Of a DNA stretch of 64,000 nt, positions 21,055 through 38,973 are shown one piece after another; position 1 is the first letter of the stretch, and each line of letters opens with the position of its first letter. Location: assembly GCF_011745625.1 (NCBI RefSeq), contig NW_027191464.1, positions 496,001 to 560,000 on the forward strand, written 5' to 3'. The notes below the pieces were generated by a model. The model was not told the origin of the DNA. It did not search any database and worked only from the letters and a program-made list of their open reading frames with translations. Source of the stretch: Cladosporium halotolerans. Lineage: Eukaryota. A program made the position numbers and the translations under genes.

Positions 21055-21676
21055 AAGGCCCATCTCAACCGCGGTGGTGGGGTGGCGTGGGCTGCCCTGC
21101 TCAACCACTCTTCAGCGGCGGAGACGGCAGCTCTCACACGCCCTTTGCCCTGTCTCCAGCCCCGTTCTCGCAGCCAGCACTGGTCGGCACGCGCAGTCGG
21201 AGATGAGCGGAGCTCTACTCTCGTCGCAGAGGCTGCCATGTTTCCGTACCTATCTTGCACTTGACAACACCAATCGAGTCATCTGCCCACGCCCGGCTCG
21301 GAGACTCTTGGCTTTGCTCTGCTTCGTGGCCTGCCACGCCTGCCTTTAGCAAACGTGGTTTTCACAGAATGACACGACAAATCTGCCCTCGCCGCAATTG
21401 CCGGTAGATTTACCAGCGCTATTTGTTCGTTGAGAGTTGATCGTACTTGGCTTCCAGCCGAGGCTGGCGTCGTTTCAGGAGCATGCAAATGGGAGAACAA
21501 TCTTCCATCTCTTGTTAGAGATGTCAAAACGGGATCTGCCCCGGGGCAGTGTGCACTCGTGAGCTTCGGCTGCGTCGTGAAGTACCCTTCAATGGATAAT
21601 TCTGTCCACTGTCAAGCAAGATGGCATAAGCTTAGATTTTCTAAATACCTTTCGCTGGCTCTCAATGATGAGAAGG

Positions 21677-22971
21677 CTATGTTCGGGGGACATCCGCCTG
21701 AAGCTCCGCCGGTTTTTCGCTATTTCCAAGCTCTGTGCCCATCCTACTCGCCACGTCTGGCAACTCCGGGCTGTACACATTACTAGAATCAAGCTCGTTC
21801 ACTACGCCTCCGTAACGAGGATCTGGTGCCGGGTTCTCGTGTGCTCTAGGCGCCACTGCCGCCTCGTGACTTGTTTTCACCTTCCTTTTTCTCCACCACC
21901 ATGCTACAAGCGCTAAGCAAATGATACTGACACCGGCTAGAACGCCAACCACAATACCAGCGATTGCTTTGCCACTTAGCCCGCCTTCCTCTCCCACAGG
22001 TGTCGGTGCAGGTAATGGCGGAGGCACGCGACTTCCCGGGCTATACTCATTGGTCCTCAGGCAAGACACCGTCGTATGAGCGCTTATGATCGTGATGGTT
22101 CGCCTTGCGTTCGCCACGGGCATGAACACTGTGAGTATAGGAAGGACGGTGTATGTAAGGTAGTCGTATACTGTCGCATTGCCGTACGCTGCGCCTATCA
22201 GATTCCACGTCTCGTTCGCGGAGGGACCGGTCGCCGTGCAAGGTCCACGGGGGTTGCCAAAGAACAGGCCCAGAGGTAGCGGCTGGCGCGAGGCATGGGT
22301 GCCGGAGCTTTCGTAGTTCATCGTCAAGGCATAGCCAGTAGCTGTGTACCAGCTCTCGTTCATGTACGGCTTGCATTTGTCGGGTAGGCGAGCTTCCATT
22401 GACTGGCCGATGCTATCGCAGACAGCTGGAAGCGAGTCTGCGGTTAGGTTGCTGTCCGGTAGTGGTTTTGGGTTCCCTACCAAATACAACGCGAGATCCT
22501 GGGACTGTTGCTCCAGGGCTTGGACGCATGCTTCGTCGAACAGCGCAACACAATCACCGTTGTCGAATTGACCGCGGCGAAGGGTGTTCTCCGTATACCC
22601 TGTGAGCGCGACACTACACACGTCATAGCCCAGCGTAAGACTGTCGGAGTAATTCAGACCGTTGGTGTTGTACCACCCTGCCAGCTGGACATTGCCGTTG
22701 GCGAAGTCTTCAGTGACCGTTACTGCCCAGGATGCGTTGACAGGTTGGATTGAAGTGCCAGGTGCAACGTCGGGATTGAACGGGTATATCCCGGTCTGTC
22801 TGATCGTTAGTAGGTCAAGGTCTATGCAGGCGTCGTACAAACCGCATTTGCATCATTCAAAGTCCCGTTACAAAGTAGGATGTCGTCCTTGGCGCCGCTG
22901 GCTTCGTCGATCGACTGCGACGCCACTTTGGAGGTCAATGCCACGACACAAGCTGCGCACAGAGCTCTCAT
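21677..22971 (-). CDS. Single-pass type I membrane protein with Cys-containing ectodomain, unknown function, 2 exons
   Basis: Signal peptide MRALCAACVVALTSKVAS, intron 22842-22796, TM GLSGKAIAGIVVGVLAGVSIICLALVAWWW followed by RKRK, cytoplasmic tail with repeated ExL motifs. Confidence 0.75.
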
Positions 22972-23269
22972 GTCGGAGAAAACGAGCTAACTAAAGCAAG
23001 CAACGTCGACTCGAAAAGACCGTGAGAGCTGGGAGCTTAGGGTCATCCTGAATTTCTGATGTTGAGCGAGTACGAAGGACTCGGACCTTGGCAATCATGC
23101 CACGCAGATGATGGTCACGCATAAGTGGAACGAGCTCGCGTATGCATGCGATTGATCATCCTTCTTTGATAGTTGCCTTGCGGTAAGTATTGCGAAGAGC
23201 TCACGCACCCGTCATCCTCTACAGGGAACGAATTCATCAACGAACAACCTATTTTGAGTACATAGATGG

Positions 23270-24100
23270 GCAGTAGCGAGAAGCGCCACTTCACATCACC
23301 TGCATATCGCCGCGTGCCATTAAGCGGGTGAACGAAACCGGTGATTGGGCCAGGGAACAGAGCCGCTAGCGGGTGGCCGCATGTTGGAGAAACTCGAGTC
23401 CTTTTGATTCTGGTATTTGATCTATGTCTCGACGCGCCCGAAGGCGCGAGCGCAGAGTCGCGAAAACCGCCGCTTCACATTATCCGCGCCCGCGAGCAAG
23501 TGAACAAAAGATCTGATTGGGACGGGAGCAAAGACACTAGCGGGTGGCCGCATATTGGAGAAACTCGAGTCCATTCTATGAATTGATTGATTTTTCGACT
23601 CCGCATGGGCGCGCGCGCGCGCAGTCGCGATGACCTTCACTTCACTTCACCTGCGCAATCAAGGGCGCGCTCAGTAGCTGATTGGTCACGGGAGAAAGGG
23701 CGCTAGCGGGTGGCCACATACTGGACAAACTCGAGTCCAATTTAGTTGATTATTCATTATTTTCGACGCCCATCGCGCGCGCCCGCGCGCGCAGTAACGA
23801 AACCCGCCTCTTCACTTCACCTACGCGGTGGAGGGCGCGCTCAGTGACTGATTTGTCCGTAGATAGCGGGCGCTAGCGGCTGTCTGCATATCGCAAAATC
23901 TCGAGTCCTTTTTCTCTGTTATTTAATTTTCGAGGCCGCGAGCGCGCGCGCGCAGTCGGGGAAACCGCCACTTCACTTCAGCTTCGCGACGAAAGGCAGT
24001 CAGAGCAGCTGATTGGCTGGCGAACAGCGGGCGCTAGCGTGTGTCCGCATATGGCAAGATCTCGAGTCAACACCCAATGATTTTGTTTTATTTGTTGTTT
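23270..24100. repeat. Intergenic tandem array of five diverged units of about 161-171 bp
   Basis: CTCGAGTC at 23393, 23564, 23730, 23900, 24061 (spacing 171, 166, 170, 161); each unit also has CTTCAC, TGATT(G/T)G, (G/A)CTAGCG and a T-rich tract in the same order, with (GC)n runs between units. Confidence 0.92.
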
Positions 24101-24894
24101 TTGGAGAGGATTGGGATATCGCTTCGCTTCTGAGAGCCGTAGATGGAGGGAATACATCGGCGAAACTTCCTACCCGCCCTGATTCATTCTCGCCGTTGTG
24201 TCACTCCAACAGATCCTTGGGTCGTAGCACGGAGGGCCTTGCAATCCCTCGGCAGTCGTGCATGTACGACGGGCTCCTCGGCGCCTATCTGTCTCCGAAT
24301 GTGTACGCACATCATGATGTCGCACAATCCCCTAACCAACATCTCACAGTGTCACACATCATCACACAAGATTCAAGACAGGAGGCAGGTCCCATCCTTC
24401 AATGAGAAGCAGGTAGGCAAGATTGGTAGGTAGGTAGTTTGATTTCCGAGTAGGCTCATTTGCGTATAGTACATCATTATCATCGTCGTATTCTTCTCAC
24501 CCTTCCCTTCCCGTATCTTGACCCGGCTTGTAGCTCGTCGATCGATCGTTCCGACAGAAGAATAGAAGCCCCTCCGCGCAAAAGACAAGAAATGCCCAAC
24601 GCGGCAAACCAGGGTATATATGTGTGTGCGTGTTCCCTCCCGCGTGCGTGCGCTCGAACGCGTGCCTCCAGCAGCAAAGAACAGGTTGAAAAAAAAAATG
24701 GAAGCGTCCAGACAGCCGTGTCCTGGTCCCTCAAGTACCGTTCCACTCCCCAAGTGATCCTTCCAAGGGAACGCGCTGGTCCTGTAGTAACCCAATCCCC
24801 ATCACCCATGCCCCGTCCTCGACATATTCCCACTGCCGCCAGACCCCGATCCCCACCTCACCGCGACACCAGGCCTCACCCTCCCCAGACTCTC

Positions 24895-27552
24895 CTAGTA
24901 GCCCGGTTTGGGCGGGATGAATTTCGCGCGCGTCACGGCCATGAGCTCCTCGACGAAGGTGTCTTCCTGCTTCGCCGTGCCGACGGCCGTTTGAAGTCCC
25001 AGCCCTCCGGCCGAGACGCCGAACTCCCGATTCTGTTCGCTCGTCGTGCTGTAGGAGGAGTCATTTCGCGCGTCGGATTGCACTGTCATCTCGCTGTCGA
25101 CCATAATGCCGCCCCAGAAGTTGTCGCGCCGGGCGCCTGAAGGGTCGTGGTCCGGTTCGACGCCTTCGGCGTCGCCCTCAGGAACCGGCGTGGCGTGCAC
25201 GGCGATGGGCTCGACTTTGTCGACGAGACCATTCTCCGACGACGCGTCGGTGTCCGTGTAGCTGGACTTGCGTTCCTTGTACATCGGCGGGTCGGTCTGC
25301 GCGGAGTCGAGACGCTTCAGCTTGCCACTGACGCCCGAGGCACGCAGCTTCGAGCTCGTCTGGGCTTTGACGATCTTACGGCCGAGCAGCGGGCCGAACT
25401 CTGAGTGGATGTCGCGCGCGAGGTTGGCGTGGTCGGGTGAGCCGGCGTAGCAGCGCTGGCGGGCGCTGAAGAAGGAGAGCGGCACGCGCGTGAAGGAGTC
25501 GAAGGCGTCGATGGCGACGTGCATGTCGGCCATGAGGCAAAAGGCGTAGATGACTGACGGCATTGCTTGGCCGCCGGTGACGGTGGAGTAGTGGGCGTTG
25601 TAGGGTCGGGCAAGGAAGTGGGATTGACTGAACCACTCTGGGGGAAGAGTGCGGTCGAGAGTCTGGACGGCGGAGATGATGGCCGCGGCGAATGTTCTCT
25701 CTCGCATCGCTGTTGGTGTTGGGTCTTCGCGCATTGCGAGACGTCGTTCCATTTGTCGTATACATGCGTGCGGCCTGAGACCATCGAGAGTCGTCAAGAC
25801 ATCATGCTGCCATGGTTGAGGTGGGCCCTTCAGTAGCTGGACATCCGGCAGCTGGTTCTGTGCGCGCTTGTTGACGACGATGTCAAATCCGCCGTGCGCT
25901 TTGGCGATGGGCGCGAATAGACTGAACCACGTTCCAGACTTGTCAAGCGTCTCCAAGTTATGGATGTAGCGTTGAAGCTCGTCGCAGTGAGACTCCAGAA
26001 CAGCCACAGGCACTTGCAGAGACTCCGCAATGGTACGAGCTACATTTGGCACAGCTGCAAATCGGAACCCGGCGTTGAGCAATTTGTCGGCCTCTTCGGT
26101 GTCCACCTGTCGAACAACGAACAAGATCTGACCCTTGCCAAAGACCAGCTTGCGCACGTTTGCGCCCATCTCAATGTCCTCTTGCTTGTTGCTAGTTCGC
26201 GTCCCACGTAGGATCGGATGCGTGTCCGGTAGGGTTGCGGTTTCGATGATACGGTCGTAAAGCACGCCAAGCTTCTCAAGGGGGATGTGCAAGCTGGACG
26301 CCAGGTTTGCTGCTGCCACGCAAAAGCGTTCGCGGAAGATGACAGAGTAATCGTTGTAGGTGGAAGGATGATAGATGGTGCTTGACGCCGGGCTGTCGGG
26401 ACGGGAGTCGAGGTCGTGTTGTTCTCTCTGAGCGATAAGATGGCTCTTCATCTTGGGGACCAAATCGCTGACGCCAGCCCAGTTGTAGGTCACACGGAAG
26501 ATCCAGTGGAGCACCGAGTGGGCGGTGTTGAACTCGTCTGTGAAACCGTAGGAGTTGTATCTGTCGGTGATTTCGCGTGCTGGTAGGGTACCATCCGTGT
26601 TGACGAGGATTCGGCCCTCAAGATCGAAAACAGCGCACGTGAGCACGACTTTTGAGGCTCGCTTTCTGTTGCTGCGCGCTTTGTGGCGTGTGAAGAACAG
26701 GTAGGTGAGGAATGTGAGTGCTGCGGCACCGCACAGGACGCCAGCGATCAGGACCTGGACATCTCGTTGTCGTCCGGCGGCAGCGTAGTGTTGGAACACG
26801 TATTGACACCCAACAGAGGCTGTGAAGTGCATCGCTGACACTCCGCCAGCCAAGAAAGAGGCACAGAACAGTCTCTTCCACCAGGAGTTGATCCATGCCT
26901 CTCGCCAGGTGTAAAACAAGACCAGCACAAGCAGGCAGTCGCCCTCGGCGATGATGAAAGCTGCGGCCAGGTATCTAGGGTTGTACTTTAGGGTGTAGTT
27001 AGATGTACCAAGGTTGCCAATGTAATGCATGCCAACGATTGATAGACCAGCAATGATTCCGGTGACGGTCAAGGCAAGCCAGTGATGTAAAGGTGTTGCA
27101 GTGCGGTACTCTGCTGCCGCAAACGCTGCCGTGAGTCCTATTACCGGCAGAAAAACGGACAGCGTCGTGAACCCAGGGGCGTAGGCAAGCTGTAATGAAT
27201 CTCGCCCATCACCAAGTGTGATCGCACGATTACTGCGAACTGTCAGTAACGACAATGCCACCGTGACAGCCATCCAACATACCCTATGAAATGCATACAC
27301 CAAATCCCAACAACCCCCATCGCTGCCGCGCATGCTATGGTCTCGAGCCTGGACATCGTCAGCGCTTGCGCGTCAAGGATCCAGATACGCAACTCACCAA
27401 CTCCGCAAGCTGCCAAGCGCTGTTCCACGACGGTGAAGCAGCTCGATTGTTAGTAAACATCCACTGAAACTAGCAAAGTATGATCCAACAACGATGGCAG
27501 GATTGAAGAAGCTCGAGACGATGTCGCCCGGCTGAAGGTTTTCGTAGGACAT
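24895..27552 (-). CDS. MHYT-domain membrane signalling protein, 3 exons
   Basis: N-terminal TM region with three MHYT-type motifs (GIWCMHFIGN, IVGMHYIGN, VSAMHFTAS); introns 27397-27349 and 27282-27233; long soluble C-terminal region. Confidence 0.88.
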
Positions 27553-30500
27553 CTTTGTGAGGGCCGAAATGGTTCCAAGGGCCCGGATGGTAGGGCGAGT
27601 CCAAAGAGCGAATGGCACGTCCGGCGGGCGTCAATGGACAAGTCCAACCGTACCCGCAAGCCCCAGAGATGCGCCAATAAGTCAAAAGGAGGAAGAACGT
27701 TAGGACGCCCTGGTGGATCGCATCCAGGGACGATGGTGACGCTTTCAATAAAGAGGCCGGCGCAGCAAAGGAGTGAGATTCCTCTATTGAAACGAGCGAG
27801 CCACCTATGCGCTGCGCATTGGGGCGGTCTGCCAGAGGATGTGAGGAGATAAGCGCGGATCCGGGTTCGAGCTGAGGAGCGTGTCCGTGTCCGAGTCGCT
27901 GGCAGAGGCGATTACGGTACCTGGGCGGCGCTGCTCAGCAGGTGATTGTCGCACTGCAGGGCCCGCGTCCAAGCTTGCTTCCTGTTGAGGGTGGTTGATC
28001 AGTCCGAAGGTGGCAGGCGGCGGATTATTGCATGCTCGTTCTCGCGCTGGACGATGCAAGGAATGGCTGCAAGACGAGGCGAAGAGCCGCAGTCACGTAC
28101 GACGCTGGGTGCCGGAGGTCGACGGTGACTTTTCACTCGCGGCGCAGGGAGCAGTGGGTTCGGCGGCGGAGGGGGTATATGAGCAGGGATGCGCTATGCG
28201 CACCATCTCTCAGGCTTGCTCCGACGGATGGGGCGCTGCGAGGCGGCGGTGGCCATCTCTGAGAGGCGAAACGCACTGGCGGCGCAGACGGGCGGACTGG
28301 ATGCAGGTGTGCAACTACCGGCGGGCTGGAATGCGTGGCGTCGGTTGGTGAGGCGTGCCTCCCGCCCTTGGCCGCTCTTGCATGCGGCCGCGGTGGGTGA
28401 TGCAGCGATGCTAGTGTTGCGAGGGAAGGGAACTAAGGTAGGGCCTGCGAGTCGCGACGCAAGGGCGTTCCCTGCGCGCGAGCAGTCGTGCCTGGGGCCA
28501 TCCGAGGCAGGCGGGCGGATGCCGTGCCGGGCTGTTGTCCGTCTGTCGTCCATCTGCTGGCGTCTGCCGGCCGGTGGTCAGGCACTCGCGGCACCCTGAG
28601 GCACAGGCGCACTGGCATATCTGGCGGTATACAATGGCGCGCGCGCCCCTCGCACACGCCGCAGGCTCCCAGCCCAGACGCAAGGGAGCACCAACGAAGT
28701 CGTCGCCAGCTCCACGGGGTGCGTCTCTGGTGCGCTGGACCCCGCTGATCGCTTACAGCTGTGTGACGCTCGCCTAGCGCCAGCGAGCCTGCGCTCATCC
28801 TCCGCCGCGCCCTCACCACACGGACCGGCCTGGCGACTCGCCGTGGTGTCTGATCGCTGTGGGGGGCCGTTTCTTCGAGTGCGCGTGCGAGATCCTTGAT
28901 CCCCCTCCGCGCCCGCTGGGCCACTTCTGTGTCTGGCATGGCCTTCCCCGCCGCGGCCCAGCATCGCGCAGATGAGCCGTGTCTGCAATACTCGCAACCC
29001 GGTAGCAATATCGAGAGTCGAGCGACGGAGACACGGCGGCGTGCAGGCCGCAGCCGTGTGTGGCCAGATGCGCTCATCGCGCCCAGCGGCATTAGCGGCT
29101 GGCGCGACTGTGGATGACGGCTACGTGCATCCGCGCCGGGGTGTCTGGCGGGCACTACAGACAGATCGCAATCATCCTGGTCAGCAATCCTCGTCCGCAT
29201 ACATACAGTACACAAGGGGTGCTCGCAGGCCCTGCCGAATGCCGTCTTCCGTTGTCTCAGCTGTGGGAGCAAGACCCGCGACCGACTCAGCGTTTGTCCG
29301 TCCGCTCCACGTCCGCGACGTCTGACGAGCAACGGCGGCCTTGGGCAACGAGGCCAAGATCCGGTGCATCATTTCCGGCGCCGTGGTTTGCCAATCCAGC
29401 GGGGCGCCAGCCTCCACGAATCCTCGGACGGCGCTCTCCGATCGACCCGAAGGATAGACTTCGCTGGGATGGCAAAGTCAATTGAGCATGGATGTAAGGT
29501 ATGGCACCTCGCCTCACGGCAGCGACCGCCAGACAACGCGAACACTGCCCTCGAGTCAAGCCGTCAACTTCAAACACTCAACCGACCAAGTCTTCAAGGC
29601 ACCAGCCGTCTTGGATCCTGTCTTCCTTGTTCAAGCTAGCGCTGCCAACCCGTCCGTCCCTGGCCCTAATCTGCTCCGCAGGTCCGGGGTCCGCGGCAAG
29701 GCACGGGCAAGGCTCGATCTACCGCCCACCCGCCGCGTTGAGCGCACACGCTCCTTTCGCCAGGAGCAATATTCGTCTTGGGTGTAGCGCGAACGAGCGC
29801 GCTCGTGCCTAGATCTACCAGCCGTGCGCTCGCTCCACCGCACCGACCTTTTGCGCAATACTGTTCTTTAGTCGCGATGCGATTTCCGGTTTGCCGGTTC
29901 GCGTGCCCGTCCGAGTTTCAGGGGAGTCTATTCTACAACGGCCCGGTGTGAAGACTGCTTAGAGCTAGTCGCGGACCATTGTTTGCGTCCGCGTCGGTCT
30001 GGCAATCGGCCAGGCGTCCACGGCACGGCTCATCCACGTTTCGTTCACGTGGCGATTGACTTCTAAGTTCTTCTACCGTTGAAGATATCTGAGATGCTCC
30101 ACAGGCGAAGTGGGTCGCTGTGTGCAAGCGAGCTGCCACAACCTATCGAAGAATGGGGGGGAAAATAGTTCGCCGGACACTGATGTTGGTATAGATGGAT
30201 GGTGCATGTGTGTGTGTTCTTCGGTTCCGACACTGTGCGTGTATAGTATCAAGCAGCTCATTACATGGCAAGTGCCCGTCGAGGTTGTCGGCCTTACTAA
30301 GATGCCGGCCTAACGAGATGCCTTTTAACCGTGCAGTCTTTATCCGCTCGGGCGCGCCGTCGCCTCCATCAATTCTTTAGATGAACCCCCAAAGTCTGGT
30401 TGCGAACGGAGTCTACCGAGATGCGGCGATGGATTCCAGACTTCACAAATAGCCTCCTACCAAGCGGCCCGCCCTTCGCTGTAATACGAGTCATTGGCAA

Positions 30501-38880: not shown

Positions 38881-38973
38881 TGGAGATTGAGGGAATCGAA
38901 CCCTCGGCCTTTCGCAAATCTTTTAAATCGTCGTGGATGCAAAGCGAACGCTCTACCCCTGAGCTAAATCCCC
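38881..38973 (-). tRNA. tRNA-Ala (anticodon TGC) with 21-nt intron
   Basis: GGGGATTTAGCTCAGGGGTAGAGCGTTCGC-TTTGCA-[TCCACGACGATTTAAAAGATT]-TGCGAAAGGCCGAGGGTTCGATTCCCTCAATCTCCA; G3:U70 Ala determinant; 72-nt mature length; T6 Pol III terminator directly downstream. Confidence 0.95.

Follow-up and report, generated by a model that had tools for sequence, protein, structure and literature searches.

A 0.85-kb array of five diverged units, arranged head to tail in the same orientation (23262-24110; MAFFT alignment), lies upstream of a minus-strand membrane-protein gene in the 64-kb window of Cladosporium halotolerans DNA, that is, the whole stretch that was analysed. The array is best classed as a tandemly repeated promoter module whose age and nucleosome-length period are unusual. 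Judging from the sequence, we put at roughly 0.5 the probability that an upstream regulatory module of the gene at 21677-22971 was amplified in tandem long ago at this one locus; the amplification is taken to be old because the units are only 55-71% identical. Within the units, the motifs and their spacing are better kept than the bases between them, which supports constraint. The features discussed below are collected in Table 1.

Table 1. Array, repeat units and neighbouring genes (positions in the window)
Feature	Position	Strand	Basis or remark
Whole array	23262-24110		five units; 55.4% GC; CpG observed/expected 1.37
Unit 1, 181 bp, closest to the downstream gene	23262-23442		MAFFT alignment, unit HMM
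Unit 2, 169 bp	23443-23611		MAFFT alignment, unit HMM
Unit 3, 170 bp	23612-23781		MAFFT alignment, unit HMM
Unit 4, 161 bp; CCAAT box altered to CAAAT (TGATTTG on the plus strand)	23782-23942		MAFFT alignment, unit HMM
Unit 5, 168 bp, distal; long T-rich tract at its end	23943-24110		MAFFT alignment, unit HMM
Core module, unit 1	23342-23401	-	GGACTCGAG, 21 bases, CGCTAG, about 18 bases, CCAAT box
Core module, remaining units	23514-23572, 23679-23738, 23849-23908, 24010-24069	-	same motif order
AT-rich tract after the core (example)	23739-23764		T-rich on the plus strand, A-rich on the gene's strand
Downstream membrane-protein gene	21677-22971	-	RNA-run X15/X16 contigs cover 21079-23009
MHYT-domain protein gene, main exon, upstream neighbour	24895-27372	-	spliced RNA-run contigs from 24462 upward

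Repeat units and conserved blocks

A preliminary description of this DNA had placed five homologous units here, and all of their positions were recovered. The motif CTCGAGTC is found at 23393, 23564, 23730, 23900 and 24061, which makes five of the seven copies in the whole window, and the distances between successive unit motifs (171, 166, 170 and 161 bp; mean 167) agree with the period of about 167 bp proposed there. Adjacent units are 0.67-0.71 identical and the two end units 0.545, the identity declining with distance along the array; mean column identity over the five MAFFT-aligned units is 67%. The repeat search recovered three to five copies of each block family. Because the units are diverged, TRF reports just 2.2 copies, limited to the best-kept part of the array (23513-23879, period 170, 77%). 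On the other hand, a 35-column pattern of invariant positions has five matches in the 64-kb window and none in 100 shuffles of it, and a unit HMM matches exactly five array copies in the window. No decayed extra units were found in the flanks of the array (nhmmer --max, E up to 1000).

The array is not an artefact of one assembly, since another study's DNA metagenome run (X3) yielded contigs identical to its proximal part (23199-23526); in the depth table, cover extends to about 24037. The strain comparison consists of this one independent DNA run, which is identical wherever the array is covered. A low-depth X3 contig tracks the window to 23963, at the start of unit 5, and then continues with 124 unlike letters; the first 30 of these, which are the ones printed, have no match elsewhere in the window. 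This contig could be chimeric, or it could come from a structural variant of the array in another strain.

On the strand of the downstream gene, each unit consists of an A-rich tract, a core of about 60 bp, a GTGAAG(TGAAG) block and a CpG-rich (CG)n run. The position upstream of a minus-strand gene was missing from the preliminary description, and it changes how the motifs are read: TGATTGG becomes CCAATCA(G), a forward CCAAT box, and the T-rich tract becomes A-rich. TGATTGG is present at 23342, 23514, 23679 and 24010, with the variant TGATTTG at 23849. Hence CCAAT is found in four of the five units, and its extended form CCAATCAG in three, always forward relative to the downstream gene; because the box of unit 4 is mutated to CAAAT, the CCAAT motif is not strictly kept. 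CTCGAG is matched in all five units. Of the motif set claimed for every unit, CTCGAGTC thus held in five of five and TGATTGG in four of five plus the variant, but TTTTCGA occurs in only three (23592, 23760 and 23927). The distance from TGATT to CTAGCG is 24, 23, 24, 24 and 24 bp in units 1-5, and that from CTAGCG to CTCGAGTC is 27 bp in all five. With these near-fixed spacings the core is nearly free of indels in every unit, whereas the two other spacers vary (39-53 and 71-80 bp). The core motifs are also concentrated in the array: CCAATCA, GGACTCGAG and CGCTAGCG each occur four times, against 0.09, 0.013 and 0.013 copies, respectively, expected from the rest of the window when scaled to 849 bp.

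Across the five units, 56 of 148 ungapped columns are invariant, and they include runs of 8, 6, 6 and 5. When the columns were shuffled, the observed sum of squared run lengths had p = 0.0013, and four or more invariant runs of 5 or longer had p = 0.00095. Neutral evolution was also simulated in 300 histories of five units with substitutions and indels, each realigned with MAFFT, because the aligner alone can produce such blocks. Neither the observed sum of squares nor four long runs was reached in any of the 300, and a longest run of 8 or more appeared in seven. Rates are uniform and the tree is ad hoc in these simulations, and the simulated units are slightly more diverged than the real ones (mean identity 0.61 against 0.64 observed). 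Mutational rate heterogeneity could explain part of the clustering, and the result of the simulations is supportive, not final. In general, the divergence is not evenly spread but leaves clusters of invariant columns, and the earlier claim that motifs persist while the intervening bases diverge is upheld by the shuffles (p of about 0.001), by the simulations and by the fixed core spacings. Degradation of a duplication by repeat-induced point mutation (RIP) was rejected as a source of the divergence: summed over all ten pairs of units, transitions (247) do not outnumber transversions (325), and the array is enriched in CpG (observed/expected 1.37, compared with 0.99 in the window).

The base composition of the array alternates with a similar period. 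Four AT-rich minima (30-bp GC of 0.30 or less) fall within the array, near 23584, 23749, 23917 and 24091, and another falls just beyond its left edge, at 23246; the weaker tract that follows unit 1, around 23400-23419, goes down to 35% GC only (20-bp bins). The minima recur every 165-174 bp or so, and the autocorrelation of GC content peaks at lag 170 (0.21). Fungal nucleosome repeat lengths lie near the 161-171 bp period of the units. By general rules of nucleosome preference, the alternation of AT-rich and GC-rich DNA probably places one nucleosome on each unit.

Gene neighbourhood and related loci

Both flanking genes run on the minus strand, which puts the array upstream of the membrane-protein gene and downstream of the MHYT gene. 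It begins 291 bp upstream of ATG 22971 and 253 bp past the last base of the downstream gene covered by an RNA contig (23009); at the other end, the stop of the MHYT gene is about 0.8 kb away, and the RNA-run contig cover of that gene, whose 3' untranslated part extends from the stop at 24895 to at least 24462, comes within 352 bp. RNA contigs (X15/X16, from one study, and X20) lie on the flanking genes and none on 23010-24461, which is missing cover and no evidence that the stretch is silent or otherwise; small RNAs would in any case escape libraries such as these. In the gene neighbouring the array, stretches of about 50 nt are spliced out of the RNA-run contigs.

In the downstream gene, exon 1 begins at ATG 22971 and encodes a signal-peptide-like N-terminus; the main exon spans 21677-22852, with the stop at 21677-21679, and a short predicted intron (about 22800-22842) separates it from exon 1. 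The start codon is backed by alignment to the N-terminus of a homologue (P0003) annotated in a Cladosporium species. A low-depth X16 RNA contig (22794-23008) crosses the predicted intron without a joint, and the X15 contig begins at 22847, short of the intron; the X16 contig could derive from unspliced transcripts or from another splice pattern. The product is a predicted single-pass membrane protein with a signal-peptide-like start and a C-terminal membrane span. No Pfam family matched it. Among its 17 homologues, one is 97% identical and the next are 45-46% identical; its matches in the protein atlas all score below 0.9 and serve as leads only. By its sequence, it is a fast-evolving signal-peptide/transmembrane protein.

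The window is gene-dense and also contains genes for NADP-glutamate dehydrogenase, an amino-acid transporter, a mitochondrial resolvase, exportin CRM1, shugoshin and Med5. Its sole RNA family match is a tRNA-Cys(GCA) gene at 38881-38973 on the minus strand, the length of which (93 nt) suggests an intron. Upstream of the MHYT main exon, three blocks (27956-28070, 28160-28341 and 28725-28772) are 70-86% identical in related loci while the surrounding DNA is unaligned; the first is matched in ten of the 12 loci, and since RNA-run contigs reach about 1 kb past 27500, these blocks may be 5' exons or leader elements. The stretch at 28-30 kb of the window is unusually GC-rich (65%).

The nearest relatives recovered were 12 metagenome loci with orthologues of the MHYT gene (60-82% protein identity). 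Their DNA aligns with the window upstream of the MHYT gene, to about 34.1 kb, and the similarity ends at the stop; gene order, too, is shared exactly as far as the MHYT stop (24884-24895). Downstream of it, the relatives (loci L002, L004, L005, L007 and L011) carry a 2EXR/F-box-like frame and a gene for an AMP-binding enzyme, in the place of which the window has the array, the membrane-protein gene and glutamate dehydrogenase. The array therefore sits at a break in gene order relative to these loci. The membrane-protein gene is absent from all 12, and, being without the downstream gene, they are silent on the conservation of the array.

The search with a unit HMM that the preliminary description had proposed was run on the 64 kb and on the 99,346 bases of the 12 related loci, and it returned the five array copies only. 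Similarly, a pattern of 23 invariant core positions had no match in the metagenome contigs, nor in the prokaryote genomes and viral contigs, the latter collections being without fungi and carrying little weight here. TRF, run on seven of the 12 related loci, found three small arrays only (period 24-28 bp, 2.0-2.2 copies), none of them alike, and it would overlook repeats diverged as far as the units of the array. No such element is described in the available parts of the literature on Cladosporium promoter tandem repeats with CCAAT, or in those on fungal intergenic tandem repeats, nucleosome repeat length and minisatellites.

Alternative explanations

It is conceivable that an intergenic segment of about 170 bp was amplified long ago by replication slippage or unequal exchange, and that the array is now a functionless minisatellite, slowly decaying and drifting, in which the kept blocks reflect uneven mutation or local gene conversion. 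We regard this as somewhat unlikely. It would fit the occurrence at one locus in the 64 kb and nowhere else in the collections searched, the fall of identity along the array, as expected from stepwise duplication or exchange between neighbours, and the CCAAT box already lost from unit 4. Drift does not readily account for the fact that the same blocks are invariant in five of five units and that the core is almost indel-free when the rest is not; clustering of this degree was absent from all 300 neutral simulations, and the five units have persisted at about 36% pairwise difference without collapse. Low mutability is no obvious cause of the kept blocks, because they contain CpG (CTAGCG, CTCGAG). 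Two further explanations start from the period. It is rather unlikely, and we propose it only tentatively, that selection maintains the array as a regulatory element with a nucleosome-length period, its five units forming a boundary or a switch-like enhancer. One nucleosome would then be positioned on the GC- and CpG-rich body of each unit of about 167 bp, with the AT-rich tract as the linker; a rigid composite of three motifs (CCAAT box, CGCTAGCG and GGACTCGAG) would be presented at the nucleosome edge, and the five units would cooperate through competition between nucleosomes and factors. In such a natural fungal enhancer, chromatin would dictate the repeat length, and the array would have been kept long after the duplications. 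A chromatin element independent of the downstream promoter, i.e., a boundary or insulator, a replication origin or a nucleosome-phasing array, has a still smaller probability. The closeness of the period to fungal nucleosome repeat lengths, the regular AT-rich minima with the GC autocorrelation peak, and the location between the 3' end of one gene and the 5' end of its neighbour are in its favor, but nothing in the array is specific to an origin or a boundary, and a phasing effect would suit the promoter reading as well. Of the forms this explanation could take, a centromere is the least likely. Centromeric satellites have nucleosome-length monomers, e.g., of 171 bp or about 180 bp, and, like them, the array has monomers of about one nucleosome plus linker joined head to tail; unlike them, it has just five units (0.85 kb) at a single locus in 64 kb of a gene-dense region. 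The centromere option of the preliminary description found no support: the array is far too short, active genes with RNA-run contig cover lie too near it (253 and 352 bp), and the region contains housekeeping genes and neither transposon genes nor a large AT-rich tract. The broader suggestion of a phased protein-binding element survives as the most reasonable reading.

The remaining explanations place a gene or a mobile element in the array. A protein-coding repeat was rejected: the open frames are short and inconsistent among the units, whose lengths (181, 169, 170, 161 and 168 bp) are not all multiples of three, and a search of the protein collection with an 81-aa frame spanning units 1-2 returned no match, in line with the earlier statement that no credible ORF is present. 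That the units are tandem genes for small non-coding RNAs, either of Pol III type with A- and B-like boxes and T-tract terminators or snoRNA-like, is very improbable. It is true that TAGCGGGTGG and CTCGAGTCC bear a loose resemblance to A and B boxes, that each unit has a T-rich tract after the motifs and that the core is without indels. However, the box-like motifs are 27 bp apart and directly precede the T-tract, which would give an RNA of only about 45 nt; to our knowledge, this distance right before a T tract fits no known Pol III gene layout. The first T run follows the motif after 0 to 26 nt, so the position of a terminator is not fixed. In the array, no Rfam family reached its gathering score, the two matches obtained with E up to 10 are at chance level and not tRNA-like, and ARAGORN found no tRNA. 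The check for covariation among the units that had been proposed for this option turned out unfavorable: the RNAalifold consensus folds are weak, with covariation terms of +1.08 and +2.04 kcal/mol (both strands), and the minimum free energy z-scores of the ten unit-strand folds range from -1.67 to +1.25, none of them beating the shuffles. These structured-RNA tests rest on five paralogous units and have low power. Lower still is the probability that a mobile element left the array behind, whether as subterminal repeats of a DNA transposon, as an internal LTR array or as a repeat derived from a MITE. Elements of these kinds can bear tandem subrepeats and often insert in promoters, and the array does lie where gene order breaks. 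Nevertheless, it is not flanked by terminal inverted repeats, the inverted pairs present being (CG)n runs or short chance matches; a second copy was found neither in the window nor in the related loci, and the metagenome, prokaryote-genome and viral collections contained no match. None of the 27 long frames of the window matches a transposase, integrase or reverse transcriptase family in Pfam, which bears out the earlier remark that no transposase is nearby.

A repeated promoter module and known systems

As a promoter module, the array would multiply the binding sites for sequence-specific factors upstream of the membrane-protein gene. The CCAAT-binding complex (HapB/HapC/HapE, NF-Y in animals) has as its target the CCAAT (or CGAAT) pentamer in promoters, and the motif suggests that this complex would occupy the CCAAT boxes, and that other factors would bind the CGCTAGCG, GGACTCGAG and GTGAAG blocks. 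Candidate CCAAT boxes in four of the five units liken the array to CCAAT-box arrays bound by the complex, from which unit 4 departs in having no pentamer. No HapX-type partner motif was seen, by eye, at the expected distance past the CCAAT box. An Xbp1/APSES-type factor may perhaps bind CTCGAG, a six-base match that serves as a lead only; CTCGAG/A is given as the site of the yeast repressor Xbp1 in one report (PMC3814307). The multiplied sites would set the strength or the condition-dependence of transcription of the downstream gene, and the AT-rich tracts that alternate with GC-rich bodies would probably also phase one nucleosome per unit.

Tandem repeats upstream of single fungal genes offer the closest comparison. 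In Penicillium digitatum, five tandem copies of a 126-bp promoter enhancer are described as raising the expression of CYP51A (PMC11122302; also PMC4336317), and in the Aspergillus fumigatus cyp51A repeat TR34 the unit contains a site of the CCAAT-binding complex beside the sites of another factor (PMC4954732). The array resembles the P. digitatum repeat and the A. fumigatus TR34, TR46 and TR53 repeats in being head to tail upstream of a single gene, its 5' upstream location being that of a promoter repeat, and it shares with the described P. digitatum case the number of copies and a unit of 100-200 bp. In contrast to these repeats, which are recent, essentially identical, strain-polymorphic and fungicide-selected at a known target gene, the units of the array are old and far from near-identical copies. 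Promoter tandem repeats alter the number and spacing of binding sites and nucleosome occupancy, according to a review (PMC3899988). The yeast promoter repeats of Vinces et al. 2009, as covered there, are similar to the array insofar as they change site number, spacing and chromatin; they are mostly short, unstable and AT-rich and located in nucleosome-free regions, whereas the array, free of signs of recent instability, has GC- and CpG-rich units of about 167 bp that each contain a single AT tract.

The value of the array is limited, because it is one locus in one lineage beside a gene without an assigned function. If the promoter-module reading is true, a promoter once multiplied a module five-fold and has long retained it, with the factor-binding blocks and their spacing fixed while the rest drifted. 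It would be an old example showing that such amplifications can turn into stable parts of a promoter, and its five paralogous units would provide a ready-made footprint of the bases that matter.
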